From an archaeon (GTDB lineage Archaea > Nanobdellota > Nanobdellia > Pacearchaeales > DTIR01): 64,000 nt of DNA. The notes beneath the pieces were generated by a model. The model searched no databases and was not told the origin of the DNA. It was given only the letters and a program-made list of their open reading frames with translations. Position 1 is the first letter of the stretch; every line of letters starts with the position of its first letter. The position numbers and the translations under genes are program-made. Where the stretch lies: contig JAZDNM010000003.1 in NCBI GenBank assembly GCA_043799715.1, positions 220,986 to 284,985 of the forward strand, written 5' to 3'. Positions 6,174 to 63,222 of the stretch are shown one piece after another.

Positions 6174-6402
6174 TTTTCCTCTTTATTCTTAATTCTCGAG
6201 TGACAGCAAGTTTATAAACATTTCTTTTGTTTTGAAAAAATTCCAAATGTTTTGCTTGCTTCCAGTTTAATTTGGGAATTTTCTTTATAAATATTCCTAT
6301 TTTTAAAGAAAGTAGCTATAAAGAGGGGAGATTAACACGGAAAAGGTTTAAATAATTCTCTTTCATTGGGAATTAAATAAAAAGAGGCAGGCAATATCAA
6401 CT

Positions 6403-8685
6403 ATGGGTTTAAACGCAGCAGGGAAAAACTTTCTTTGCATTGCAATTCTGTTTGCATTTGTTTCAATAATACTTTCTTCATCAGCATTTGCAGTGTCAAC
6501 AAGAAGTTACTGTAAATATGCAGGCGGCTCAGGAAGCTATGCTTGTGATTCAGGCGCTGTAAGCGGAAACTCTGCAGCCTGCGCTGCTGCAAATGGGGCG
6601 CAATGCGCACAAGAAGGGGATGTTTTCTGCTACGCTGAATCAACATGCGAAGCAGGCACAACATTGAAGGGGCCTATATACACCTATAATGTGAACTGGG
6701 ATGCTGACTCTGCTGACTGCTCATGCAAGGCAGGAAGCAGCAGATGGGGCATAAGATTTATTTCAGGGACAACAGGACAGTGCTGCGGAGATGATGCAAG
6801 CGAATACTTTATTGGCGCAACAAATCAGAAAAATATTGACAAGATTGACACATGCTGCAAGTCAGATGCATATGTATTCAACGGAGTTTGCTGCGGAGAT
6901 GATGCAAGCGAATATTATGCAGGCTCAACAAACGGCAAGAGCTGCGACGGAACACAGGCATGCTGCAGCTCCCCGAGCTTGTATTCCCTGAACAGCAACT
7001 GTGTTTCATCATGCCCGGCTGTGACATCAGTGTACTGGACTGACCTTTCAGGAACAAGGATAAACTCCACAGAGCTAAATGATTATGTAATGCTTGTTGC
7101 AGAAACATCAGGCGCAGAAGGGATGCTGATTAACTTCACACTATGGGAAGAGGGAATAGTAAAATGCTATGAGGAAGTATCAAGAGCTTATTCAAATCAG
7201 GGCAAGGCATCTATTCTCTGGAAAGTAAAAGCCTGTGCCGACGGCTCAAACGACGGAAATAAATTCAAGGCATTTGTAAGTTCAACTCCCCTGATTTATC
7301 TTGAATCAGGGCTTCTTGCTGTCTCGCTTGTTGAAAGCGACAAGCTGCCTGTTGCTGTGATATCACAGCCAGCAGACGGGGGAATTTTCAATCTTGGGGA
7401 TAACATAAACTTTGTCTCAGGAAGCTATGATCCAGATGACCTGATAACCAGTGTAAAGTGGGATTTTGGAGACGGATACACAAGCATGCTCGCAAACACA
7501 ACGCATGCTTACTCTGCAGGCGGTCCTAAATTTGCAATACTGACAGTCCAGAACTCAAGGGGAAAGACAGCAGAAGTCAGAATAGGCATTCTTATAAATT
7601 CATCATCTGATGATCCCCCTCTGGCGATGATATCATCTCCAAGTTACGGGGAGAAATTTTCAGGTATGCTTATAACATTCAATGCAACAATGAGCAGGGA
7701 TGACAGAACTCCTTTCAACCAGCTGATATTCAAATGGGAATTTGACGACGGCAGTTCGCCTTATTCAGGCACTGGCATTTCAGGGGCATATTTCACAAAA
7801 CTGTTCTCAACAGCAGGGGAGCATCTTGTAAAATTAAGCGTTGATGACTCAGGACCTGGCTCGTTAACAGAAACATCATTTTCCATAAATGGCTGCCAGG
7901 TTCCGCTTGACGGCACTTCTGAGTTTGTTCCGTTCGGCAGCTGTTCTTCTATAAGCAAGCATTACTTCTGCGCCAACGAAACAACATATTATGATACAAT
8001 GGAAGAGCACTGCGAGGGCGCTGACAAGCAGGCGCTGACGTCAGACGACTGCTGCCCGAGAGGATTTTATTGCCCTGCTATTGGAGCTGCCTGCTCAGAG
8101 AGATCAAGCAACTGCGCAAGTTACAATATTTCTGCTGAATGTGAACAGTATGGGTGCATATGGCTGAACTCATCATGCGCAGAGCCGGCAGGAATGTCAT
8201 CCTGCTCTGATTATAAAAGTGAGGCTGCGTGCAATACTGATGTGCTCGGATTAGGAAGGTCAGTTGGAAGAGGGCTTGGCACCGACATCTGCGGAAGGAC
8301 ATTCGGAAGCTATCTCGTGAATGCATCAAGCTGCAAGTGCGGATGGGAACCTGCAGGAAGCCCGTCTGGAAACTGCAAATTTGGCTATTCTGTTGTGAGG
8401 ATTATTCCCGGGAATGTCACATTCATAACCTGCATGAAATCATTCACATTAAGCGACTGTGTTGCAGGAACCCAAAGCATGAACTGGACTGCATTAATAC
8501 TGCCTTCGGAACTTGCTGGAAACGAGACAGCAAGACAGCAATGCAGTGAAGGATACAAGGGAATAAAATGCGGAGTTTCAATCTCAAGGCTGCCATTTTT
8601 CGGAATTTTCAATTTTGTCCTTGCTGTAGCGGCAATTGCGCTCTACTATCTCTCTGCTGCAACAAGAAGGAACATCAAAAAATAA
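6403..8685 (+). CDS. Cys-rich surface protein with PKD-like domains and a C-terminal TM anchor
   Basis: Signal peptide MGLNAAGKNFLCIAILFAFVSIILSSSAFA. The CCGDDASEY module is duplicated. Two PKD-like signatures are present, WDFGDGYTS and FKWEFDDGSS. A C-terminal TM helix precedes an RRNIKK tail. RBS-like aaagagg lies upstream. Confidence 0.7.
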   Translation: MGLNAAGKNFLCIAILFAFVSIILSSSAFAVSTRSYCKYAGGSGSYACDSGAVSGNSAACAAANGAQCAQEGDVFCYAESTCEAGTTLKGPIYTYNVNWDADSADCSCKAGSSRWGIRFISGTTGQCCGDDASEYFIGATNQKNIDKIDTCCKSDAYVFNGVCCGDDASEYYAGSTNGKSCDGTQACCSSPSLYSLNSNCVSSCPAVTSVYWTDLSGTRINSTELNDYVMLVAETSGAEGMLINFTLWEEGIVKCYEEVSRAYSNQGKASILWKVKACADGSNDGNKFKAFVSSTPLIYLESGLLAVSLVESDKLPVAVISQPADGGIFNLGDNINFVSGSYDPDDLITSVKWDFGDGYTSMLANTTHAYSAGGPKFAILTVQNSRGKTAEVRIGILINSSSDDPPLAMISSPSYGEKFSGMLITFNATMSRDDRTPFNQLIFKWEFDDGSSPYSGTGISGAYFTKLFSTAGEHLVKLSVDDSGPGSLTETSFSINGCQVPLDGTSEFVPFGSCSSISKHYFCANETTYYDTMEEHCEGADKQALTSDDCCPRGFYCPAIGAACSERSSNCASYNISAECEQYGCIWLNSSCAEPAGMSSCSDYKSEAACNTDVLGLGRSVGRGLGTDICGRTFGSYLVNASSCKCGWEPAGSPSGNCKFGYSVVRIIPGNVTFITCMKSFTLSDCVAGTQSMNWTALILPSELAGNETARQQCSEGYKGIKCGVSISRLPFFGIFNFVLAVAAIALYYLSAATRRNIKK
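6781..6914 (+). repeat. Perfect 26-nt direct repeat (tgctgcggagatgatgcaagcgaata) at 6781-6806 and 6889-6914 inside the surface-protein gene
   Basis: Seen directly in the sequence. It encodes the duplicated CCGDDASEY peptide. Confidence 0.85.
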
Positions 8686-8749
8686 CGCTTTTTCTGGAAA
8701 AAGTTTATAAATTGTTTTATGCTTGTTGATTTGGCAAAAGAGGAATTAT

Positions 8750-11443
8750 ATGTCAAGCAAATCAGCATTTTTGGTTTTGATAACTGCTCTTGCAGCAATA
8801 ATGGCTGTATCCTATGCAATTGCAGAGGTTTCAGGCAGCGGAATGATTCTGACAAGAAGCATGTATGGAATAGGGGAGGCAATTGAAGGGAAAGTTAACA
8901 TTACGCTTTCAAGCGAGCCTGCTGACAGCGCTGTAACAGCTTTGGGAAAAAATACTTCTTTGCTGGATTTCCTGAAAAATAATAATCTTGAAAAAGACAA
9001 GGATTATTTATGCACTCCTGAAGACTGCAATGACTATTATGAGACTGTTGGAATCAGCACAAAGCAAAAATCCCTGCAGGCAGGCGACACACTAATTGGA
9101 AGCATAGCAGTAGGGAAGGACATTGAAATAAAGCAGAATGCATTGGAATTCAGCATAACAGGCAATGGAGGAGAACCAGTATGCGGCGTTGTCCCCCTGA
9201 AGCTGGACTTGCTTGCAGATAACTCAATTGACTGGGTTGATATGGAGCCCTCTGATTTGTGCGGAAGCCTGCAGCCAAGCAGCTGCTATGACGATACTTC
9301 AGCAAATCTTGAGCTTGACATTACAACAACCCCCTACTGCCAAAAAATTTACTTGCCTATTTCAGCGAGATTTAAAATTTCAGCGCTTGTAAAAAAGAAT
9401 ACTGGCGGAGGGGATTTGTCTGCTTTCATATATGACAAAAAAATAGGAGAAAGCACAGAATGCGACCTTCCTGAGCCGAATGTGACTTCTTACACTGAAA
9501 CAAACTGCATGGTGGACTTGAAGGTTTACGGCAACAATCAGGATTATTATGTATGCATCCAGGATAATTCTATTGACGGCGCATACACAATAAAGGCAGA
9601 GAAATCCTCCCCTATATGCGGATACAGCGACCTTCCTGGAAGATCAAGGAACGAAAGCGCTGATTTCGCGCTTCTTGTGCAGGGAACTGCAACAATTCCA
9701 TTAAACAGGACAGTAACATTCAATGAGCAGGAATTCAGCAAGTTTTCTTCTGTAGGCATAGGGGAATATCTTCAGGATTATCTCAATAAAAGGCATTCAA
9801 GCAATTGCCTTGACGGATGCATAATTCCTATAAGGATAATCTCATCAAACGCAGCAAACTTAAAAGATATGAGACTAAGCTACTGCGCCCAGGGATTATG
9901 CACAACAGAACAGAGCTTTTTCGGGCTTGAAAGAAAAAGTTCTATGATTGACATGAACATGACATCCCTTGATTTGTCTGCTGCAAATTTGTCTGCTGAG
10001 GGATATGGGCTCCAGACATTCTCCTTTTCAATAGGCGGAGTAAAGATAGGAGAAGAGGAAATTTCAATAGAAAGAGTTCCTGTAATAAAGAATCTTGTAG
10101 CGCTTAATGCAGAAGCAGGGGCTGCTGTTGATTTTTTTGCTGAGGCATATTCCCCAAAGAACAACACAATTGTAAGCTATGAATGGATATTTGGGGATGG
10201 CGGCACTGCAACAGCAGGGAGCTCTGTAACTCATGAATATAAAAATGTAGGGGAATTTAAGGTTACTGTAACAGCAGTTGATTCACAGGGATTGAAGGGA
10301 AGCAGAAGTTCAAAAATAACTGTGGGCTCACCGCAGGAGATAATTAATATGACTCTCTCTGGCAAGAGGATAATATTCAACGAGCTTAAAAATGAGATTG
10401 ACAAGGCAGGATGGTACAAGGGGCTTATTGAAAAGCAGCTTGGCACAGCAGAAATAAGCACTTTGCTCAGTGATTATGAAAACCAGTTCAGATTCGCAAC
10501 AACCCCGTCGGAATATATAGAGCTTATGCCCAAAGTCAGCAAGTTCATAATACCCCAGTCAATTTATGACTCTGAATTTGTTACAGAGATTCCAATTACT
10601 GTTGATGTTGATTCAATAAAGCCGGAGCTTATTGAAGGGCTTAATGGCGGCGTGTATGACTCCTCAAGAGCATCTGAGACAAGAAACGCAATATGGGCAT
10701 GGCAGCACAAGAATGTTGCCATGACAGCGACTTCAAGAGTGATGGAATCCATTGATGAGAATGAGAATAGGGCAGAGCTTGCAACAATTATTACACTTAG
10801 AATAAAGCCATTGACCCAGTTGGAAGAGAGCTATCTTGTTATTCTTGCGCCTTATGAAAGCGCGACATTTGCATCAGATTACAATCAGAGAGATGTTGCA
10901 GGGAATATAGGATTTGTGCTTGACAGCCTGAGCTCTGATTATATAATTTCATTTGCTGTTACAGGGCGCGTTGATATAAGCAGCCTTGAGATGTTTATGT
11001 CCCCTTATCTGGCAAATCTCGAAATTGAGGAGAATATTGTGTGCAACAGCAACAGGGTATGCGAAAAAAATCTCGGGGAAAACTGGAAGACATGCAGAGA
11101 TGACTGCAAGCCAATAGGACTCGCTTTAATCCTGCTTATTTTTGCCCTAGCTGCAATGGCTGCAGCATATATTTTCCTGCAAAAATGGTACAAAACAAAA
11201 TACGAGAAGTATCTGTTCAAGGAGCAGCATGATTTAAGCAATATGGTGTCGTTTGCAAGCAACTCACTGAGAAGAGGCGAGAGCGAGAATGATGTAAAGG
11301 GTAAGCTCAAACAGGCAGGATGGAATCTTGAGCAGATATACTATATCTTCAGGAAAATAAAAGGCGAAAAGGTTGGGATGCCTGAAGTGAAAATTAAATG
11401 GCTTGACATGGTAAAAAACCTGCTCAAGCACCGAAAGGTTTAA
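8750..11443 (+). CDS. Large surface protein with a PKD-like domain, C-terminal TM anchor and ~100 aa cytoplasmic tail
   Basis: ATG at 8750 with aagaggaa upstream; the track ORF starts at TTG 8723. Signal peptide MSSKSAFLVLITALAAIMAVSYAIA. PKD signature YEWIFGDGGTATAGSSVTHEY. A Cys motif CNSNRVCEKNLGENWKTCRDDC precedes the TM helix IGLALILLIFALAAMAAAYIFL. Confidence 0.7.
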   Translation: MSSKSAFLVLITALAAIMAVSYAIAEVSGSGMILTRSMYGIGEAIEGKVNITLSSEPADSAVTALGKNTSLLDFLKNNNLEKDKDYLCTPEDCNDYYETVGISTKQKSLQAGDTLIGSIAVGKDIEIKQNALEFSITGNGGEPVCGVVPLKLDLLADNSIDWVDMEPSDLCGSLQPSSCYDDTSANLELDITTTPYCQKIYLPISARFKISALVKKNTGGGDLSAFIYDKKIGESTECDLPEPNVTSYTETNCMVDLKVYGNNQDYYVCIQDNSIDGAYTIKAEKSSPICGYSDLPGRSRNESADFALLVQGTATIPLNRTVTFNEQEFSKFSSVGIGEYLQDYLNKRHSSNCLDGCIIPIRIISSNAANLKDMRLSYCAQGLCTTEQSFFGLERKSSMIDMNMTSLDLSAANLSAEGYGLQTFSFSIGGVKIGEEEISIERVPVIKNLVALNAEAGAAVDFFAEAYSPKNNTIVSYEWIFGDGGTATAGSSVTHEYKNVGEFKVTVTAVDSQGLKGSRSSKITVGSPQEIINMTLSGKRIIFNELKNEIDKAGWYKGLIEKQLGTAEISTLLSDYENQFRFATTPSEYIELMPKVSKFIIPQSIYDSEFVTEIPITVDVDSIKPELIEGLNGGVYDSSRASETRNAIWAWQHKNVAMTATSRVMESIDENENRAELATIITLRIKPLTQLEESYLVILAPYESATFASDYNQRDVAGNIGFVLDSLSSDYIISFAVTGRVDISSLEMFMSPYLANLEIEENIVCNSNRVCEKNLGENWKTCRDDCKPIGLALILLIFALAAMAAAYIFLQKWYKTKYEKYLFKEQHDLSNMVSFASNSLRRGESENDVKGKLKQAGWNLEQIYYIFRKIKGEKVGMPEVKIKWLDMVKNLLKHRKV

Positions 11444-11498: not shown

Positions 11499-12146
11499 AT
11501 GCCTATTCTAATTATCCCTGATTTTTTCAAGAGGATATTTCTAACTTTGTTCAAGCAGAAAAAGCATGTGAAGCTGGGCTTGTACGGTCCGCCAAATGGC
11601 GGCAAGACAACACTCGCAAACAGGATATGCAAGGACTGGACAGGAGAAGAGCTTGGAAGCGTATCAAAAATACCCCATGAAACAAGGGAAGTCCAGATAA
11701 AAGAAAAGGTTGATTTAAAATTCAAGGGCAAGGAGCTCACATTCAAGCTTATTGATACTCCGGGAATAGCAACAAAAATAGATTATGAGGATTTCTTAAA
11801 ATTTGGCATGAAAAAGAATGATGCCAAGAAAAGGGCGAAAGAGGCGACGCAGGGAGTTATAGAATCAATAAAATGGCTTGATGACATGGATTGCGTTGTT
11901 ATAGTCCTTGATGCAACAATCAACCCTTATTCCCAAGTTAACATCACAATAATCGGCAATCTTGCAGCAAGGAAAATTCCAGTGCTTATAGTTGCGAACA
12001 AGATTGACTTGAACAAGGCAGATATGAAAAGAATAGAGTCTGCATTTCCACAGTATGAACTTGTAGGCCTTTCAGCAAAATTCGGGAAAAATATGGAGGA
12101 ATTTTATGAAAGCTTATTCAGGCTTGCAAAAAAGAGAAAGGGCTGA
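11499..12146 (+). CDS. Small GTP-binding protein (Arf/SR-beta-like GTPase)
   Basis: Walker A GPPNGGKTT, DTPG (G3) and NKID (G4). 215 aa. Confidence 0.8.
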   Translation: MPILIIPDFFKRIFLTLFKQKKHVKLGLYGPPNGGKTTLANRICKDWTGEELGSVSKIPHETREVQIKEKVDLKFKGKELTFKLIDTPGIATKIDYEDFLKFGMKKNDAKKRAKEATQGVIESIKWLDDMDCVVIVLDATINPYSQVNITIIGNLAARKIPVLIVANKIDLNKADMKRIESAFPQYELVGLSAKFGKNMEEFYESLFRLAKKRKG

Positions 12147-12245
12147 ACTCCCGGAAAAAAAAGGAGTTTCAGCACTTGTTGCGACAGAAAACATGCGGCA
12201 TATTACTAAAGGAGGATATAAACCCCTGCGGTTAAGAATGTAAAA

Positions 12246-12638
12246 ATGGCAAAAACATTTTCGTCATTGACCTTGCAGTTTATTCCTTACAGTGAGATAG
12301 ATGGAATCAAGACAGTTGAAAGAATAAAGAAACTGCTGAAGATAGTCCTGCAGAACAAGATTGTGATATTGCAGGGGAAACTCAAGCCAGAGGAAGAAGC
12401 GAGGCTTATTGAGGATACAATGGCTCTTGTAGGCAACGTAAAGGGATTCAAGGGAATTGAGCTTGCTGTTTTGTCTCCAAAGGTTGAAGACATGCCTCTT
12501 ACAGCAAGGATGAAAAGGCAGGTTGCAAAGGCATTGATTGGCGAGCAGGATGCAATGACAATAATAGGTCCTGCGTCAATTGTTAGGGATATAAAGAAAG
12601 ACCCAAGCAAAATGCAGCTGCTTCTCAGGGGGAAATAG
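12246..12638 (+). CDS. Small conserved protein, possibly DUF2073-like partner of the GTPase
   Basis: 130 aa, immediately downstream of the GTPase. The family assignment is from memory of archaeal GTPase neighbourhoods and is uncertain. Confidence 0.4.
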   Translation: MAKTFSSLTLQFIPYSEIDGIKTVERIKKLLKIVLQNKIVILQGKLKPEEEARLIEDTMALVGNVKGFKGIELAVLSPKVEDMPLTARMKRQVAKALIGEQDAMTIIGPASIVRDIKKDPSKMQLLLRGK

Positions 12639-12700
12639 TGCTGCCTGCCAGCAAGATTTATTAAGTTTAGTTTTTTAATTCTGGGAAGGGAGATTAAGAA

Positions 12701-12961
12701 ATGAAAGAGATAACTTCAAGTATTCTGCCTGAAACAAAGAGAATTTTTGAAAGGCATATAGGACTAACCTTTGAACAAATGGATAATATGGATTTAGGTG
12801 AAATAGAGCAATACATCCAAAATAAGGGGGGAGTTCCAACGACACATTCCCCAGAAATATATAGAAAATCAAGAGATGTATTGACAGCAAGGGGTAAATT
12901 TTTGACTGCAGAATCACTTGGAATGGATATGCAAAGATTAATAAGAAAATATGCGAATTGA
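12701..12961 (+). CDS. Hypothetical small protein (86 aa)
   Basis: ORF with aagggag 7 nt upstream of the ATG. No motif recognised. Confidence 0.35.
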   Translation: MKEITSSILPETKRIFERHIGLTFEQMDNMDLGEIEQYIQNKGGVPTTHSPEIYRKSRDVLTARGKFLTAESLGMDMQRLIRKYAN

Positions 12962-12994
12962 CAATTAAATAAAAGATTTAAGAAAATTAAAAAA

Positions 12995-13411
12995 ATGCCA
13001 CACCAATGCGTGCACTGCGGAAAGATATATCCCACTGCATCAAAAGAGCTGCTGCAGGGATGCCCATGCGGAAGCCATTTTTTCTTTTTTGTAAATGCCT
13101 CTGACCTGAATGTGCTGAAGGAGGAAACCTCATCCCTGACAACAGAGGACAAGAAAGAGATAGAAGAGGATGTCAGGGAGATTTTAGGAGTGGATGAAAC
13201 AGAACTCAAGCCGATTATACTTGATTTTGAGTCAATAAGGATAAACAAGCCAGGCAAGTTTGAAATTGACCTGGTAAATCTCTTCAGAAAAAAGCCGCTT
13301 GTTTTTAAGATTGAGGAAGGGAAATATATAATCGATTTGGCTTCAACATTCCTCTCAGAGCTTGAAAAAAGCAGAGCTAAGGGCAAATCAGCAAAAAAGG
13401 GAAAAGGTTAA
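12995..13411 (+). CDS. Zinc-ribbon protein (CxxC ... CxC), DUF2072-like
   Basis: The N-terminus is MPHQCVHCGKIYPTASKELLQGCPCGSHFFFF. The rest is an acidic and lysine-rich C-terminus. Same cluster as the GTPase. Confidence 0.55.
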   Translation: MPHQCVHCGKIYPTASKELLQGCPCGSHFFFFVNASDLNVLKEETSSLTTEDKKEIEEDVREILGVDETELKPIILDFESIRINKPGKFEIDLVNLFRKKPLVFKIEEGKYIIDLASTFLSELEKSRAKGKSAKKGKG

Positions 13412-13435: not shown

Positions 13436-14728
13436 ATGAATAGCATATTGAATTCTGTGCTGGGCAGGATAAAGCCTAATGACAGTGAAATTATCAGAAT
13501 GAATGCATTGACTGCAGAATTAAAGGCAAAGATTGAGAAAGGTTTGAAGAAATCAAAAATAAATGCTGATGTGTTCATCGGAGGCAGCCTTGCAAAGAAT
13601 ACTCTGATAAGGAAAGATGTTTATGACATAGATATCTTTGTGAGATTTGCTTTCAAGGATTATTCAGCAAAGGACAGCATGCTAAGCGATATCCTTGAGA
13701 AAGCGCTTAAATCACAAAATCTAAAATCAAGGAGAATACACGGCTCAAGGGATTACTTTCATGTAAAAGCAGCAGGTTCAATTATATTTGAAATAGTGCC
13801 TGTTCTTCATGTGAAGAAGCCGCAGGAAGCTGTAAATGTTACTGACTTGTCATCTTTTCATGTCTCTTATGTTTCAAAGAAGATAAACAAGAAGCTCGCT
13901 GATGAAATCCGCCTGGCAAAGGCATTTTGCTATGCGCAGAGATGCTACGGCGCTGAATCATATATACAGGGATTTTCAGGCTATGCAGTTGAGCTTCTTG
14001 TGCTTCATTTTGGCAGCTTGATGAAACTTGCCAAGGCAGCATTGAAATGGAAGGATATGCTTGACAAAAAAGAAAAGATTGTCATAGATTCAGCAAAGCA
14101 CTACAAAAACAAAAATGATGTTCTTATAAATATCAATGAGGCAAAGCTTGCATCGCCAATTATACTTGTCGACCCCACTTACTCTGTGAGGAATGCAACA
14201 GCATCTGTTTCCATTGAGACTCTTGAGAGATTTATAGAAGCATGCGTGAAACTTGCGGGAAAAGCAAATGCAGGGATGTTTGAAAAGAAGGAGATTGATA
14301 TTGCAATGCTTAAGAAATCAGCGAAAAAGAGCAAGGCTGAATTAAGCATTCTGTATGCTGCAACAGGCAAGAGCAAGGATGTTGCACCTGCAAAACTCAG
14401 GAAGTTCCTTGATTTTGTGCTTTTTGTCATGCAAAGGCATGGCTTTGAGGTTATAAGAAAAGAAATTGATTTTGCAGGGAAAGAGGCGAGGATGCATATT
14501 ATTTACAAGAGCCCTGGAAAAGAGATGATTGCACAGGGCCCGCCAATAAACAGAATTGATAACCTTCTTGCTTTCAGGAAGAAGTATAAGAATATCTCTA
14601 TCAAGAAGGGCGTTGCATATGCAAGGATAAAAAGGAAAGTCAGGGATATAAAGGCTGCTGCTGATTTAATCAGGAAGGGCAGTGAAATAAAAGCAATGGA
14701 TATTTCTGAGTTCAAGATTTCAAAATGA
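13436..14728 (+). CDS. cca: CCA-adding enzyme, archaeal class I tRNA nucleotidyltransferase
   Basis: 430 aa. The GSLAKNTLIRKDVYDIDIFV nucleotidyltransferase motif (GS ... D.D) sits near the N-terminus. Length and layout match archaeal CCA enzymes. Confidence 0.75.
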   Translation: MNSILNSVLGRIKPNDSEIIRMNALTAELKAKIEKGLKKSKINADVFIGGSLAKNTLIRKDVYDIDIFVRFAFKDYSAKDSMLSDILEKALKSQNLKSRRIHGSRDYFHVKAAGSIIFEIVPVLHVKKPQEAVNVTDLSSFHVSYVSKKINKKLADEIRLAKAFCYAQRCYGAESYIQGFSGYAVELLVLHFGSLMKLAKAALKWKDMLDKKEKIVIDSAKHYKNKNDVLININEAKLASPIILVDPTYSVRNATASVSIETLERFIEACVKLAGKANAGMFEKKEIDIAMLKKSAKKSKAELSILYAATGKSKDVAPAKLRKFLDFVLFVMQRHGFEVIRKEIDFAGKEARMHIIYKSPGKEMIAQGPPINRIDNLLAFRKKYKNISIKKGVAYARIKRKVRDIKAAADLIRKGSEIKAMDISEFKISK

Positions 14729-15579
14729 CAAGGAAAGCAATTGCAGCAGGGACTTTCTATCCTGCTGACAAGGGGGAATTATCCGGATTTTTAAGAAAGG
14801 CATTTCCAAAAAAGAGTTCTGTGAAATCAGGCAGGGCATATGGTATTGTTGCTCCTCACGCAGGATTTGCATATTCGGGGCAGTGCGCTGCCCTTGCCTA
14901 CAATGAGATTTCTGAACTTGATAAAACCTGCACTTTTGTGATTCTTGGAACAAACCATACAGGATATGCTGAATCAAATTTTGCAGTGAGCAGAGAGGAC
15001 TTTGAAACCCCGCTGGGAATTGCGAGGAATGACACTGAGTTCTGCAATGAGATTATTTCTTCGGGAATGGCTGGATTGACAATAGGGGATATGGCAGCGC
15101 ATGCGCAGGAGCACAGCATTGAAGTGCAATTGCCTTTCCTGCAGTCTGTTTTTGGCAGCGGATTCAGGATTGTGCCTGTTATATGCTCTTCTCAGAATTA
15201 TGATGATTGTACTGGATTTGCAAAGGGAATTATTGCTGCTGCGAAAAAATTAAAGAGAAAAATCTGTATTATTGCTTCAGGGGACATGACTCATTACGGA
15301 GTTGCTTACGGCTTCCTACCTTTTGTTTCAAGCATAAAAAAGAATCTGTATACAATGGACAGCAGGGCAATTGAACTTGTTTGCAGGTTTAAAACAAAAA
15401 AGTTCCTTGATTACTGCTCTGGCAAGACAATATGCGGGGCTTCATGCATTGCAGCTGCAATTGAAACCTGCAGGCTGCTTGGAAGCAATAAGGCAGAATT
15501 GATTAACTATTGCACATCTGCGGATATTTCCAATGATTACAGCAATGCTGTGGGATATGCCTCGATTGCATTCAGATAG
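14725..15579 (+). CDS. MEMO1-family protein (AmmeMemoRadiSam system protein B-like)
   Basis: AAGTFYPAD and GIVAPHAGFAYSG motifs. The start overlaps the cca stop (ATGA). Confidence 0.8.
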   Translation: MTRKAIAAGTFYPADKGELSGFLRKAFPKKSSVKSGRAYGIVAPHAGFAYSGQCAALAYNEISELDKTCTFVILGTNHTGYAESNFAVSREDFETPLGIARNDTEFCNEIISSGMAGLTIGDMAAHAQEHSIEVQLPFLQSVFGSGFRIVPVICSSQNYDDCTGFAKGIIAAAKKLKRKICIIASGDMTHYGVAYGFLPFVSSIKKNLYTMDSRAIELVCRFKTKKFLDYCSGKTICGASCIAAAIETCRLLGSNKAELINYCTSADISNDYSNAVGYASIAFR

Positions 15580-15657
15580 GGTATTGTTATTTCTTAATAC
15601 ATAAATATTTTTAAAGTGTTGAAACTCTGAAGTTACAATAAAAGATAGGGTGAGTCC

Positions 15658-16773
15658 ATGGAATATATTGATAACCTGCTAAAATTGAGAAATAATGTTG
15701 CAAGGAAGAATAAGGGGGTATTGGAGATTCTTCTTGCTAATTTTTCAGGCACAGAGCAGCAGAAGGATATAGAAGCAAGAACTCCAGTAGTAAATGATTT
15801 CTTCAGAGTCAAGATAAACATAAAGGCGTTTGATGAGAAAGAGATGCAGAAAAGAGGATTGCATGCTGTTGATTTTCACAATAATGTCGAGGTTTTTGAC
15901 GCAATGACAAGGGAGTTTGACATGCCTTACTGGGCTTTTGTCAAACTGAAAAATGTACCTTTGGCTGACTTGCAGAACACATTCATTTACCAGCTCAAGG
16001 CGTGCAATATACACTGCCCCTGGTGCTATGTTGATGACAAGAACAAGAATGGCGTTCAGGACAACAATTCAAGATTTTTCAGCATTCCCGAGATAGTTGA
16101 TGTATTTGAAGAAAAAAGAAAAGAACAGAAACTTTACAATTTGAGACCTTCTGGCGGCGAGCCGACACTTGTAGTTGAGCAGTGGCTTGAACTGCTCAGA
16201 GAAGTTAAAAAAAGAGGGCTTGGGAAGGATGTATATGTGCAGGGCGATACAAATCTGACAACAGGACATTTTATTGATTCTATTGAGGAGAAAGGGGAAA
16301 TTGAGAAAGATTTACTTGAAAAAGTGGCTGAACATGAAAATTTCGGGCTGCTCTGTTCTTTTAAAGGAACTGACTTGGAAAGTTTTCTTGAGGCGGCTGG
16401 TATGCCCGAACAATACTCCTTTTTAGAGGAGGAAAGGTGGTATGCCTTCGAAAAGCTCCTGAAAGCAGGAGTTGATGCCTATCCTTTCATATACAACCCA
16501 AATCCTTCTTCTGTTAAGCAGTTTATGGAAAAAGGGGCGGGAAAGTTTGGAGAAGGATTCTATCTCAAGACATGGATACTCCCTTTAAAGTTATACGGCC
16601 CTGAAAAGGAAAGATTAGCCAGAAAAGGGGTAAATCCTGCAGATTACCAGAAACAGCTTGACGATAGATTTTCAAAATCAGAGGAGATTATGCAGGGCTT
16701 GATTTGGAAAGAATACGGCTTAAATTACAAGGCTGTCCCAAGAACGGGAATTAAACTTGAAGTCAGAAGATAA
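15658..16773 (+). CDS. Radical SAM protein, atypical QueE/PFL-activase-like with a ~110 aa N-terminal extension
   Basis: LKACNIHCPWCYVDD carries the CX3CX2C motif. A Gly-rich SGGEPTL follows. 371 aa. Confidence 0.65.
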   Translation: MEYIDNLLKLRNNVARKNKGVLEILLANFSGTEQQKDIEARTPVVNDFFRVKINIKAFDEKEMQKRGLHAVDFHNNVEVFDAMTREFDMPYWAFVKLKNVPLADLQNTFIYQLKACNIHCPWCYVDDKNKNGVQDNNSRFFSIPEIVDVFEEKRKEQKLYNLRPSGGEPTLVVEQWLELLREVKKRGLGKDVYVQGDTNLTTGHFIDSIEEKGEIEKDLLEKVAEHENFGLLCSFKGTDLESFLEAAGMPEQYSFLEEERWYAFEKLLKAGVDAYPFIYNPNPSSVKQFMEKGAGKFGEGFYLKTWILPLKLYGPEKERLARKGVNPADYQKQLDDRFSKSEEIMQGLIWKEYGLNYKAVPRTGIKLEVRR

Positions 16774-16774
16774 A

Positions 16775-17491
16775 ATGGCTGAAAGAAAAGAATATTTTCT
16801 AAAGAAGATTTATCCTGAACATCTTGCTGAGATGAGGGCTATAGGCAGGAGGATTGTTGATGTAAGGGTGCAGGATCCTTTAGACAACGAAAAAAGATAT
16901 TCTGAATTCAGGGAGAATGACTGGCTGCATTTTGAAGACACAAATCATGAAGTGCTGAAAGCGTCTGTCCGCTACTGCAGGCATTATGACAGCATAGAGA
17001 ATCTGCTTATAAATGAAGGCATAGAGAACGTATGGCCCAATGCAAAAACATTAAAAGAAGCCATTGAACTGTCAGTTGGATTTCCTGGTTATGCTGAGAA
17101 TATTGAGAAGAACGGCGTTTATTCTCTGTGCATAAAAAAACTTGCAGTTTATGTTGCAGGCCCTTATTCAGGCACAAGGAAAGAAAAAATTAGGAATATA
17201 AAGAATGCAGAAAAAATAGCAAGGGAAGTTGCAAAGATGGGATATATTCCATTAGTGCCACATAAATTATTTGAATTCTGGGAGGATGAAGGCTTTGGAG
17301 AGAAAGCATGCATGGCGCTTGAGAAGGACTTATTGCAGGATAAGAGCGATTTTTTTTATTTTATTAATCCTTCAAATGGTACAAATAAAGAACTTGCGAT
17401 GGCACGGGAGATAATGCCTATTTTTATTTCCCTTGAAAATTTGAGATTCTGGAAACCTGTCAAGACTGAATCAAAATCTAAATCCAGTTAA
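16775..17491 (+). CDS. Hypothetical protein with a nucleoside 2-deoxyribosyltransferase-like (DUF4406-like) C-terminal domain
   Basis: The ATG lies 1 nt after the radical SAM stop; the track ORF starts at TTG 16757. The motif LAVYVAGPYSG resembles the YxAGPF of the NDT/LOG fold. Confidence 0.45.
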   Translation: MAERKEYFLKKIYPEHLAEMRAIGRRIVDVRVQDPLDNEKRYSEFRENDWLHFEDTNHEVLKASVRYCRHYDSIENLLINEGIENVWPNAKTLKEAIELSVGFPGYAENIEKNGVYSLCIKKLAVYVAGPYSGTRKEKIRNIKNAEKIAREVAKMGYIPLVPHKLFEFWEDEGFGEKACMALEKDLLQDKSDFFYFINPSNGTNKELAMAREIMPIFISLENLRFWKPVKTESKSKSS

Positions 17492-18030: not shown

Positions 18031-18125
18031 TGCTCCCGACGGGACTCGAACCCGTGTCGCAGGCGTTCTCTTTACTTTTTATGTAGACGAGAGGCCCGCA
18101 TACTTGGCCGCTATACTACGGGAGC
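18031..18125 (-). tRNA. tRNA-Glu (anticodon CUC) with a 22-nt intron at the canonical 37/38 position
   Basis: The reverse complement folds as acceptor GCTCCCG/CGGGAGC, T arm ACGGG-TTCGAGT-CCCGT, anticodon stem CGGGC/GCCTG and loop CTCTCG|C. The intron lies at + strand 18066..18087, and its GAGA can pair with the anticodon-region TCTC in a BHB-like arrangement. Folded by hand. Confidence 0.65.
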
Positions 18126-18128
18126 ATA

Positions 18129-18227
18129 TAGCCCCGCACGGATTCGAACCGTGGTCGCAAGGTTTCTTAAGCATTTTATGAATCTGCTTCCAGAGCCTCG
18201 CATACTGGACCGCTATACTACGGGGCT
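18129..18227 (-). tRNA. tRNA-Gln (anticodon CUG) with a 26-nt intron at 37/38
   Basis: The reverse complement folds as acceptor AGCCCCG/CGGGGCT with A1:U72 and A73, T arm CACGG-TTCGAAT-CCGTG, and anticodon stem CGAGG/CCTTG. Compensatory changes relative to tRNA-Glu support the stem. The intron lies at + strand 18164..18189. Folded by hand. Confidence 0.6.
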
Positions 18228-18600: not shown

Positions 18601-18673
18601 GCCTCAGTAGCTCAGTTGGTAGAGCACGACATTGGTAATGTCGGGGTCGAGAGTTCAATCCTCTCCTGAGGCT
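18601..18673 (+). tRNA. tRNA-Thr (anticodon GGU), no intron
   Basis: Acceptor GCCTCAG/CTGAGGC, D arm GCTC-AGTTGGTA-GAGC, anticodon stem CGACA/TGTCG with loop TTGGTAA, T arm GAGAG-TTCAATC-CTCTC. Confidence 0.85.
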
Positions 18674-19101: not shown

Positions 19102-19578
19102 TTATTTTTGGTATTTTTTTATATTTATCCCCAAGTCCACTGGTCCGAATGCCAATGGCAGAAGTTCCTCTATACTTGACATGATAATCTTGTCTTTCTT
19201 TGTTGTTGATATGATAACTTCTATATTTTTTCCTGAAATCTGCGATGACTCATAAATCATCTGCCTGCAGCTTCCGCACGGGGCTGTAACTTCCTTTGTG
19301 TCAAAGTTTGCCCCTCTCGCAATTATAGCGATGCTGTCATACATTCTCTTGTTCATGGAATTAGCTTTAAGCAGTGCGGCTCTTTCTGCGCAGATTGTTG
19401 AGCCGTATGCAGCATTCTCAACATTTGAGCCGGTGATAACCTCTCCATCTTGCGTGAGTATCGCAGCGCCAACATAGAACTTAGAATAGGGATTGTATGC
19501 TGTTTCCATTGCTGTTTCCGCTTTTTCAAGCAAAAGCTTCTGGATTATTGTCAATTCTTCGAGTTTAACCTGCTTCAT
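19102..19578 (-). CDS. cdd: Cytidine deaminase
   Basis: CAERAA and PCGSCRQ zinc-binding motifs. 158 aa. Confidence 0.85.
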   Translation of the reverse strand: MKQVKLEELTIIQKLLLEKAETAMETAYNPYSKFYVGAAILTQDGEVITGSNVENAAYGSTICAERAALLKANSMNKRMYDSIAIIARGANFDTKEVTAPCGSCRQMIYESSQISGKNIEVIISTTKKDKIIMSSIEELLPLAFGPVDLGINIKKYQK

Positions 19579-61779: not shown

Positions 61780-62631
61780 TCAGTTCAAAACTGTCTTGGG
61801 CTTTGCAACAATCTCGTGCTTTAAATCTTTTATGGAAATGCTTTCCACTTCTGCCCTTGCGACTTCAATGAGTTTTTTGCTGTTCATGACAGCAATTGAC
61901 TCATCCTTGCTGAAATTGTCATAATTTTCAAGCATGTCGCTGAAAACAGGGGAGCCGTGCAGTAGTTTGTCAAGGAACTCTGGCTTGACTTCTGCTTTTT
62001 TCAGGATTTTAGTTATTTCCTCAACAGGATGCAGCATTGCATCAAGTTTTTTGCTGTCGCCTTGCTTGTGTTCCTGAATTGCATCTGCAAACTGGTAAAG
62101 AGTGAATGAATCTTTCTCATTGAATATGCTTGCCTTTGTCCTTCTCAGCTCTGACATGTGCATTCCTATCCCAAGCTCAATGCCCAAGTCATGAACAAGC
62201 TTTCTGATGTAAGTCCCTGCCTCGCATTTAACTCTGAAAAGAATTTCAAATTCCTTTCTCTCAAGAATGTCAAAGCTTATTATTTCCCTCTGCCTTTCCT
62301 GCCTTTTCACTCTTGACTTCACAGGAGGCAGCTGCATTATCCTGCCAAGAAATTTCTTTTTTATTGCCTCTGCAATTTTTTCAGTTTCAATATCCTTATG
62401 CAATCTTGCAATTCCGACATACTCCTTGTCCTGATGAATAAAATAATCCAGAAGCCTTGACGCCCTGCCAAGCAAAATTGGAAGTACTCCTGTGACTTCA
62501 GGGTCTAAAGTTCCTGAATGCCCTGCCTTGCTCAAGCCAAGCTCTTTTCTCACAAAATCAGTTACTTGGAATGATGTCATTCCCGCTGGCTTGTCAATTA
62601 CAATTATGCTCCTGTTCAAGTCAAGTTCCAT
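61780..62631 (-). CDS. cbf5: tRNA/rRNA pseudouridine synthase Cbf5 (TruB family)
   Basis: IVIDKPAGMTS and GHSGTLDPEVTGVLP TruB motifs. 283 aa. Confidence 0.8.
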   Translation of the reverse strand: MELDLNRSIIVIDKPAGMTSFQVTDFVRKELGLSKAGHSGTLDPEVTGVLPILLGRASRLLDYFIHQDKEYVGIARLHKDIETEKIAEAIKKKFLGRIMQLPPVKSRVKRQERQREIISFDILERKEFEILFRVKCEAGTYIRKLVHDLGIELGIGMHMSELRRTKASIFNEKDSFTLYQFADAIQEHKQGDSKKLDAMLHPVEEITKILKKAEVKPEFLDKLLHGSPVFSDMLENYDNFSKDESIAVMNSKKLIEVARAEVESISIKDLKHEIVAKPKTVLN

Positions 62632-62688
62632 CCGGGGATTTAGAAAAAGATATTTATAAAATATATCAAAAGAAGTGAATATTCAAAA

Positions 62689-63222
62689 TTATTTCTCAAG
62701 CGCCTTTCTCTGATGGACTTCTGTCCTTGGCTTTATGAGCTCCCTCTCAACTTCATGCTTTTCCTTCTGCAAGAGTCTCTCTTCTTCCTTGAGCTCCTCT
62801 GCTCTTTTTTCCTCTTCTGCATTGCCCTCTTTTTCCTGCTCTGCCTGTTTCTTCTCAATCTCTGATTTTTTCACAGCTGCTTTTGCAATCTCTGACTTTT
62901 CTTTTGCCATAATCATCTCTGCTCTTTTGCTGAGCTTGACTACCTCAACCATCACTTCACCTGTTGAGTATTTCACTGCCTTGATTTCTATCTTGGCAGG
63001 CGGCTTTTTTATGCTGCGTCTCCATACTGCCTCATTCAGAAATTTGCTAAGCTTGATTTTCTTTATGTCGTCCCTGACTTTCATGTGCCTTGCTATGAAC
63101 TCCCTTATTGTCTTTACTGCCTTGTTTGCCCTTTTGTATCTTGGCACATGCATCCACGAGCTTCTCAATGGAATTATGTATTTCCTTTCAAGAACAATTG
63201 TTTTTTCCTGTTTCTTTGCCAT
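62689..63222 (-). CDS. rpl31e: Ribosomal protein L31e with a long K/E-rich C-terminal extension
   Basis: The first ~90 aa match L31e: IPLRSSWMHVPRYKRANKAVKTIREF and LNEAVW. A charged ~85 aa tail follows. Confidence 0.8.
   Translation of the reverse strand: MAKKQEKTIVLERKYIIPLRSSWMHVPRYKRANKAVKTIREFIARHMKVRDDIKKIKLSKFLNEAVWRRSIKKPPAKIEIKAVKYSTGEVMVEVVKLSKRAEMIMAKEKSEIAKAAVKKSEIEKKQAEQEKEGNAEEEKRAEELKEEERLLQKEKHEVERELIKPRTEVHQRKALEK

Follow-up and report, generated by a model that had tools for sequence, protein, structure and literature searches.

Do the cca gene of a DPANN archaeon and the three genes that follow it form one pathway, or do they merely stand side by side? The question is raised by a 64,000-nucleotide (nt) stretch of a Pacearchaeales contig (hereafter the window), whose closest named relative is a Candidatus Pacearchaeota metagenome-assembled genome. 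Here the gene of the tRNA CCA-adding enzyme is followed on the plus strand by genes for a Memo-like protein, a radical SAM enzyme (rSAM) and a 238-residue protein that we call ORF4 (open reading frame 4). An earlier reading made from the letters alone, the sequence-only reading, had taken the four as a chain in which the MEMO1-like gene is paired with a second rSAM, and had suggested an uncharacterised nucleoside, nucleotide or tRNA modification pathway. We propose instead that the locus brings three independently distributed units side by side in one lineage and is not a dedicated four-gene pathway, a reading to which we give a probability of about 0.6. The first unit would be an origin-proximal housekeeping array of origin-associated protein (oap) genes, cca and Memo, the second a stand-alone rSAM gene, and the third ORF4, a fusion of an ASCH domain with a domain of the nucleoside 2-deoxyribosyltransferase (NDT) fold.

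Gene order around rSAM carries this proposal. In an rSAM-anchored survey of 44 loci (L numbers below), the order oap-cca-Memo-rSAM-ORF4 recurs only in L001, L002, L006 and L052, that is, in a single Pacearchaeota genome and in metagenomic sequences that are twins of it; in L001/L052 the rSAM is 68% and ORF4 ~75% identical to that of the window. In L010 and L050 (56% and 64% rSAM identity) cca-Memo is followed by an Rpp30 gene on the opposite strand and then by rSAM; the genes after it encode a stand-alone ASCH protein, a double NDT-like protein of 267-278 residues and Q_salvage, with a dCMP deaminase gene ahead of Q_salvage in L010 only; the two halves of ORF4 are separate genes in these loci. 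In L007 (61%) an opposite-strand gene lies between Memo and rSAM and a double NDT-like gene follows rSAM, and in L049 (70%), which lacks ORF4, the opposite strand carries an AbiEii/PD-(D/E)XK/LAGLIDADG region downstream of rSAM. Neither L051 (60%) nor any locus at or below 54% identity has cca, Memo, ORF4 or the salvage-type genes near rSAM. Taken over the survey, cca, Memo or ORF4 is found near rSAM only in L001/L002/L006/L052, L010, L050, L007 and L049, and in none of the ~33 other loci. The GTPase-OapB-OapC block, on the other hand, accompanies cca-Memo in the same order in L001/L002, L010, L049 and L052. The four-gene arrangement, whose recurrence the sequence-only reading had wished to see checked, is therefore found again only in very close relatives (L001/L052), and the proposed four-gene pathway is not supported. 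The nearness of rSAM to cca-Memo, or to ASCH/NDT-like genes, is confined to one Pacearchaeota-like subclade (rSAM identity of 56% or more) and does not extend to all of it.

Within the window the chain itself is as had been described. All four ORFs lie on the plus strand at the coordinates first given, the stop of cca overlaps the start of Memo (aaATGAca, 14725-14728), a gap of 78 nt separates the end of Memo (15579) from the start of rSAM (15658), and the TAA stop of rSAM (16771-16773) is one base from the ORF4 ATG at 16775. This ATG, and not the TTG at 16757, is taken as the start of ORF4 because the N-termini of its homologues read MA/MP/MV-xRKEYFLKK. The cca/Memo pair is translationally coupled. 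The 78-nt A/T-rich spacer shows a T-run and a TATA-like 'ataaatattttta', and a GGTGA ribosome-binding site lies 5 nt 5' of the rSAM ATG. We suspect that rSAM-ORF4 is transcribed apart from cca-Memo and that the spacer has a putative promoter; a scan for bacterial-type promoters and terminators, a type of scan unsuited to an archaeon, gave no signal above the shuffled background. Family scans confirm the identities of the first two genes. The cca product has the nucleotidyltransferase head, the tRNA_NucTransf2 domain and the C-terminal domain of a CCA-adding enzyme (PF09249, 89.5 bits against a cutoff of 27; PF01909 and PF21133 just under their cutoffs; TIGR03671 over residues 5-408, 237 bits, under its 281-bit cutoff), and the Memo-like protein matches both PF01875 (206.8 bits against 27) and TIGR04336 (243.9 against 26).

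In the window and in L001/L052 Memo and rSAM are same-strand neighbours, which would suit a Memo that has been re-paired with this rSAM in an alternative AmmeMemoRadiSam-like system, acting together with cca and ORF4. We find this hardly credible, since one or two opposite-strand genes part Memo from rSAM in L010, L050, L049 and L007, neither Memo nor cca is near rSAM in more than 30 loci, the 78-nt spacer resembles a separate promoter, and the canonical AmmeMemoRadiSam rSAM is encoded in the same window, where the sequence-only reading had placed it, on the minus strand. The link between Memo and the rSAM of the locus is accordingly rejected. The same reading had noted that the window lacks AMMECR1, and we too found none: none of the six frames contains the LRGCIG-type motif, and there was no Pfam match to it among 20 further window ORFs of 155-371 residues, shorter ORFs not being covered exhaustively.

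What, then, is the second unit? The rSAM carries the cluster motif LKACNIHCPWCYVDD (CNIHCPWC, of the CX3CX2C type) and SGGEPTL, both of which had been noticed earlier, and these together with a partial TIM-barrel fold place it in the radical SAM superfamily; its PF04055 score is 38.5 bits against a cutoff of 29.5 and the family scans otherwise gave generic superfamily matches. A homologue search that covered 5.8 billion proteins returned 94 clusters, of which ~90 are full-length relatives at 31-70% identity, and the edge of the family is sharp, as the E-values jump from 1.9e-33 to 2.6e-5. Among 185,579 species genomes 39 loci were found. The source labels read, with few exceptions, Pace-, Woese-, Nano- or Aenigmatarchaeota, and no member was found in viral contigs save for one relative at 23% identity. 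A few members are labelled Methanosarcinales, Saccharibacteria or 'bacterium'; for those from metagenome-assembled genomes labelled Methanosarcinales or Candidatus Saccharibacteria (L034, L035, L041), mis-binning or horizontal transfer beyond DPANN is possible.

In an alignment of 36 sequences the invariant positions comprise the cysteine triad, the GGE motif, R50 and D88, as well as N199 and T202 (DTNLTTG), K236 and G237 (SFKGTD), P276, Y279, R319, Y357 and R362. No other cysteine is conserved in this alignment and therefore the rSAM is a single-cluster enzyme, and the conservation of R50 and D88 makes the ~105-residue N-terminal extension an integral part of the family. The N-terminal 108 residues have no sequence match in Pfam or the PDB, the NCBIfam and PADLOC models all stay well under their cutoffs with the rSAM, and the family profile run against PDB sequences yielded generic cluster-region matches only. 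The rSAM thus founds an uncharacterised family that is almost confined to DPANN archaea. That it is kept in ~90 clusters from Pace-, Woese-, Nano- and Aenigmatarchaeota, and hardly at all outside them, suggests that the enzyme is probably important to the biology of these archaea, and it has no characterised relative.

The AlphaFold2 model built from the family alignment is very confident (pLDDT 95.6, pTM 0.93) and predicts a partial barrel like that of PFL-AE, the strongest fold resemblance of any family (Foldseek E 5.5e-6, TM 0.63 on the target); NifB (13.5), QueE (13.4), lysine 2,3-aminomutase (13.1) and RlmN (12.8) rank after it. Foldseek also returned long alignments of low TM to enolases, which we read as reflecting a predicted architecture of N-terminal cap plus barrel. 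The earlier description of an atypical, QueE/NrdG-like rSAM with an N-terminal extension was thus a fair one, the core being nearest to the PFL-AE/NrdG/QueE type and the extension being conserved. The rSAM is, however, only 14% identical to PFL-AE (PDB 3c8f, 8fo0), and compared with the PFL-AE, NrdG and AmmeMemoRadiSam activases it adds the conserved ~105-residue N-terminal domain and C-terminal helices. QueE and viperin are small-molecule, nucleotide-directed single-cluster rSAM enzymes, and the rSAM falls well short of both: it scores 17.8 bits against 260 with TIGR03963 (QueE) and 29.2 bits against 180 with NF038283 (viperin), both matches being limited to residues ~110-190; a match to phrog_2076 (QueE, 5.1e-5) covers the cluster region only.

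Two more specific identities were considered and rejected. A viperin-like defence protein is not supported, as the PADLOC pVip match (3.2e-7) is restricted to residues 113-189 and the NCBIfam match is at the level of the cluster motif. A duplicated AmmeMemoRadiSam activase, which the sequence-only reading had named as one finding that would undo it, is ruled out as well, since the rSAM has no TIGR04337 match and shares 24% identity over 80 residues (E 0.017) with the copy of that activase in the window.

Given the fold, the rSAM might be a glycyl-radical-type or other protein activase with a DPANN-specific protein substrate encoded elsewhere, and it is here that this alternative has to be weighed. 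The glycyl-radical activase models are far under their cutoffs (TIGR02495 27.2 against 131; TIGR02491 17.7 against 126; TIGR02493 16.6 against 232). Unlike the known activases, the rSAM has no partner glycyl-radical enzyme nearby: no such gene recurs beside it, and neither NrdD nor PFL adjoins it in the 44 loci, except for an NrdD in L003 that has its own 232-residue activase 3 kb off. By inspection, the Gly-rich DGxGxR-type loop of activases is missing before the cysteine triad, and if the N-terminal domain caps the barrel, the opening for a protein loop would narrow. We therefore regard an activase as decidedly unlikely, and a protein substrate of any kind as a long shot.

Neighbours of rSAM in other clades offer a different clue. 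The 140 neighbours at 36 non-redundant loci match 125 different Pfam families, none of which occurs in more than 4 neighbour proteins, and neither all-against-all clustering nor Pfam counts revealed a neighbour common to the whole rSAM family. The only close neighbour that repeats is Pop5, a component of RNase P: in L012-L015 it precedes rSAM by 49-61 nt in the same orientation, in L003 by 568 nt, and in L030 the two genes diverge. Several Nano- and Woesearchaeota thus have the rSAM gene immediately behind Pop5. In L003 (4140-6917) and L013 (2861-5191) the rSAM gene has Pop5 on one side and the proteasome alpha gene on the other; in L003 the latter heads a run of SBDS and the exosome genes Rrp4 and Rrp41. 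Other tRNA-related neighbours are Rpp30 (L010, L050), TruB (L004, L051), GatD (L016/L017) and, in the clade of the window, cca. Taken together, these neighbours hint weakly at tRNA processing as a recurrent theme.

A reading that builds on this theme holds the rSAM to be a DPANN-specific tRNA- or rRNA-modifying or RNA-processing-associated enzyme, the adjacency to cca reflecting its role and ORF4 being unrelated cargo. It draws on the recurrence of tRNA-centred neighbours across clades (Pop5, Rpp30, TruB, GatD, cca), with Rpp30 divergent in L010 and L050. Yet no neighbour is conserved family-wide, small DPANN genomes are so dense in translation genes that chance adjacency is to be expected, the best structural match, PFL-AE, acts on protein and not on RNA, and the rSAM has no recognisable RNA-binding domain and a near-neutral isoelectric point (pI; family median 6.8, 5.9 in the window). 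We consider this reading possible, on the doubtful side. As for the substrate alone, the recurrent neighbours make tRNA or a tRNA-derived modified nucleoside or nucleotide our best guess, which stays short of even odds also when its salvage variant is counted.

Some of these neighbourhoods show features of their own. The TruB/Cbf5 gene and that of ribosomal protein L31e, near rSAM in L004 and L051, are found in the window at 61780-63222 on the minus strand, 45 kb from rSAM, and their positions show that rSAM moved relative to a conserved block. In L004 (6261-9635) the MCM helicase gene beside rSAM contains an intein with a LAGLIDADG endonuclease; this record is labelled 'Methanococcoides sp. 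SA1' and the contig resembles a small DPANN-type genome.

The third unit, ORF4, proved to be more than had been seen in it. The likeness of its C-terminal half to the NDT/DUF4406 fold holds, as LAVYVAGPYSG is present, DUF7768 scores 36.2 bits against a cutoff of 26 and DUF4406 21.8 against 22, and a flavodoxin-like NDT fold goes with the family model match; the ASCH domain that makes up the N-terminal half had been overlooked. The latter has the ASCH (PF04266) beta-barrel fold, and the ORF4 family profile matches PH0355 (2z0t, 8e-12) and PF0455 (1s04, 1.3e-10). In an exhaustive HMMER search of 1.84 billion representatives only 4 of 323 matches covered both halves, the others being stand-alone proteins of ~115-130 residues (corresponding to residues ~10-122) or ~110-120 residues (residues ~121-225). 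The ASCH-NDT fusion is rare, and each domain is common alone; no description of the architecture was found in the searchable literature.

Compared with the NDT superfamily (NDT, Rcl/DNPH1, MilB CMP hydrolase, DUF4406/DUF7768, PDB 1t1j), the NDT-like domain of ORF4 is small, ~100 residues, and 9-20% identical to solved members. YVAGPY, GYxPxVPH, WE and SxGTxxE are invariant in 17 full-length relatives, and the candidate catalytic glutamates are E206, in the invariant S200-x-G-T-x-x-E206, and E170. SxGTxxE would be the counterpart of the NDT motif with the nucleophilic Glu. Turning to the ASCH half, D29 and R31 of its octapeptide are invariant, whereas at the Lys position the nearest relatives have Arg and more distant ones Lys; relative to the catalytic consensus GxKxx(E/T)xR, the ORF4 of the window has Lys replaced by Arg and Glu by Asp. 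It is by this altered octapeptide and by the NDT-fold fusion that ORF4 differs from known ASCH proteins (PH0355, 2z0t; E. coli YqfB; T. thermophilus ASCH). YqfB is an N4-acetylcytidine (ac4C) amidohydrolase (PMC6972931), and 19 of 19 tested ASCH proteins deacetylated tRNA ac4C, the Lys and the Glu/Thr of the octapeptide being essential and Glu-to-Asp tolerated; Lys-to-Ala/Leu inactivated other ASCH proteins, and Lys-to-Arg was not among the tested changes (bioRxiv 10.64898/2026.02.27.708502). In related archaea ASCH is also fused to dCMP/cytidine deaminase in a protein of 250 residues (P0263-P0266; L048 1139-1891), which is a second tie of ASCH to cytosine nucleoside metabolism.

The more distant relatives of ORF4 do not adjoin rSAM. 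A profile search and a metagenome scan located full-length relatives with 34-51% identity in ten further loci, where the neighbours are thymidine kinase, a 326-residue AAA_17 kinase-like protein, a 322-residue unknown protein, the double NDT-like protein and Q_salvage, and never rSAM. Therefore ORF4 is part of a mobile, variable nucleoside-salvage neighbourhood, which in one subclade came to sit just 3' of rSAM: ASCH and/or NDT-like genes are directly 3' of rSAM in the window, L001/L052, L010, L050 and L007, and not in L049 or L051. The association of rSAM with salvage genes is real within one subclade and does not extend across either gene family. The rSAM-nucleoside-enzyme link supposed by the sequence-only reading thus holds for five genomes of that subclade and fails in L049, L051 and the ORF4 relatives at 34-51% identity, which leaves it weakly supported.

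A few observations concern the salvage neighbourhood itself. The double NDT-like family (260-278 residues, beginning KIYLAGSF) weakly matches two NDT-like Pfam models (7.9e-5 and 0.021), none at threshold, and so looks like a tandem NDT-like protein; its genes lie at L007 2834-3613, L010 7742-8578, L050 5798-6631 and L057 1396-2112, and travel with ASCH, Q_salvage and thymidine kinase genes. A tblastn search of the window (E < 1e-3) found no double NDT-like, L010-type dCMP deaminase, Q_salvage, thymidine kinase or kinase-like gene, nor Pop5 or Rpp30. In L049, the closest relative without ORF4, the AbiEii, PD-(D/E)XK and LAGLIDADG-like genes occupy 6227-10781, and the site 3' of rSAM seems to be a variable insertion region.

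The junctions in the subclade nonetheless invite the thought that modified nucleosides or bases are recycled by a single pathway made up of rSAM and the ASCH, NDT-like and Q-salvage genes 3' of it. In five genomes salvage-type genes lie directly 3' of rSAM on the same strand with tiny gaps, and the context varies from the ASCH-NDT fusion (window, L001/L052) to ASCH plus double NDT-like plus Q_salvage, with or without dCMP deaminase (L010, L050), and to the double NDT-like gene (L007). A single-cluster rSAM whose N-terminal domain possibly caps the barrel would be consistent with a small-molecule substrate, and the enzyme could, for example, remodel a 7-deazapurine or an N4-modified pyrimidine freed by glycosidase-type enzymes, by analogy with the queuine lyase of bacteria, an rSAM that acts alongside enzymes of queuosine salvage. 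With the association ending at the border of the subclade, we hold a dedicated recycling pathway to be unlikely.

Several points nevertheless weigh against three independent units and the functions we attach to them. The junctions from rSAM to the ASCH/NDT genes measure +1, -11, +9, +7 and -8 nt in five genomes whose rSAMs are 56-100% identical, and such tightness could mean a real functional link. As the loci are related, 'conserved' and 'not conserved' both rest on few independent events. The sole ground for the tRNA guess is the neighbours of rSAM, in genomes that are very compact and full of information-processing genes, and the near-neutral pI of the family is unlike that of many RNA-binding enzymes. 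Finally, with the catalytic Lys of the ASCH octapeptide being Arg in the window, the ASCH domain of ORF4 may only bind its ligand and not hydrolyse it.

With three juxtaposed units as the preferred reading, we infer the following picture. The rSAM would bind one [4Fe-4S] cluster through C116, C120 and C123 and SAM through the GGE motif, as the conserved motifs suggest, and would make a 5'-deoxyadenosyl radical. Its substrate, lodged between the N-terminal cap and the barrel, would lose a hydrogen; the ~105-residue domain and the C-terminal helices would cap the barrel and so shape the site where the substrate binds. In the Pacearchaeota-like subclade, the genes of the variable salvage island 3' of rSAM (ASCH, NDT-like, dCMP deaminase, Q-salvage) are probably transcribed together with it from the 78-nt spacer. 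In ORF4, the ASCH domain would recognise, and perhaps deacylate, N4-acylated cytidine, free or in tRNA, and the NDT-type domain, using the Glu of [S/D]xGTxxE, would act on the N-glycosidic bond of pyrimidine nucleosides or nucleotides, by cleavage or transfer. What is released would feed pyrimidine salvage together with the cytidine deaminase encoded nearby (19102-19578), in an organism that is probably unable to make nucleotides de novo; the genomes of DPANN archaea are tiny, and these archaea are thought to draw on the building blocks of their hosts. Literature on DUF4406/DUF7768, AmmeMemoRadiSam, DPANN radical SAM enzymes and ASCH with deoxyribosyltransferase contained nothing bearing on mechanism.

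A bolder and rather improbable thought is that the DPANN rSAM belongs, as a new enzyme, to the metabolism of tRNA or modified nucleosides, engaged either in a lineage-specific tRNA modification or, in Pacearchaeota, in remodelling a scavenged modified nucleoside or base, such as a 7-deazapurine or N4-acyl pyrimidine, together with the ASCH, NDT-like and Q-salvage proteins encoded downstream, for reuse by an archaeon that depends on a host, its N-terminal domain being an undescribed substrate-capping module on a PFL-AE-like core. Interest in the family would grow if the rSAM proved to be a tRNA or modified-nucleoside enzyme. The ASCH-NDT fusion and the salvage island (thymidine kinase, dCMP deaminase, Q-salvage, double NDT-like) in turn point to recycling of modified nucleosides, which fits the removal of ac4C by ASCH proteins. 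With the idea of a Memo-linked four-gene pathway dropped, rSAM and ORF4 are left as two separable targets. The features of the locus and of its surroundings are collected in the table.

Table. Features of the cca-Memo-rSAM-ORF4 locus and related genes, in window coordinates
Feature	Coordinates	Strand	Evidence or remark
Upstream block: GTPase, OapB, OapC (origin-associated protein genes)	11499..13411	+	PF01926 1.1e-14, PF09846 8.4e-17, PF09845 3.4e-23
GTPase	11499-12146	+	
OapB	12246-12638	+	
OapC	12995-13411	+	
cca, archaeal class-I tRNA CCA-adding enzyme, 430 aa	13436..14728	+	PF09249 2.3e-25; TIGR03671 2.4e-70
Memo-like protein (AmmeMemoRadiSam system protein B), 284 aa	14725..15579	+	PF01875 4.6e-61; TIGR04336 1.7e-72
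A/T-rich spacer, 78 nt	15580..15657	+	read from sequence
Radical SAM enzyme (rSAM), 371 aa	15658..16773	+	PF04055
rSAM N-terminal domain, residues 1-105	15658..15972	+	R50, D88 invariant; FDMPxWA motif
rSAM CX3CX2C [4Fe-4S] cluster-binding motif, C116/C120/C123	16003..16026	+	invariant in 36 sequences
rSAM SAM-binding GGE motif, G166-E168	16153-16161	+	36-sequence alignment
ORF4, 238 aa, ASCH + NDT-like (DUF7768/DUF4406) fusion	16775..17491	+	
ORF4 ASCH (PUA-like) domain, residues ~6-122	16790..17140	+	octapeptide G24-R-R-I-V-D29-V-R31
ORF4 NDT-fold domain, residues ~124-225	17144..17449	+	YVAGPY, GYxPxVPH, WE, SxGTxxE
Cytidine deaminase, 158 aa, nucleoside-salvage gene (context only)	19102..19578	-	PF00383 3e-18, PF08211 3.8e-14
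Canonical AmmeMemoRadiSam rSAM, 336 aa	52144..53154	-	TIGR04337 2.7e-116, 388 bits against cutoff 220

Two further observations concern the surroundings of the locus. The GTPase and oap genes (11499-13411) immediately precede cca, and a replication origin could be near. Beyond ORF4, two long tRNA genes stand in tandem on the minus strand at 18031-18125 and 18129-18227 (95 and 99 nt by Rfam) and probably contain introns, and ARAGORN detected only one of the two, with a four-base anticodon. An ordinary tRNA-Thr(GGT) gene is located on the plus strand at 18601-18673, 400 nt from this pair.

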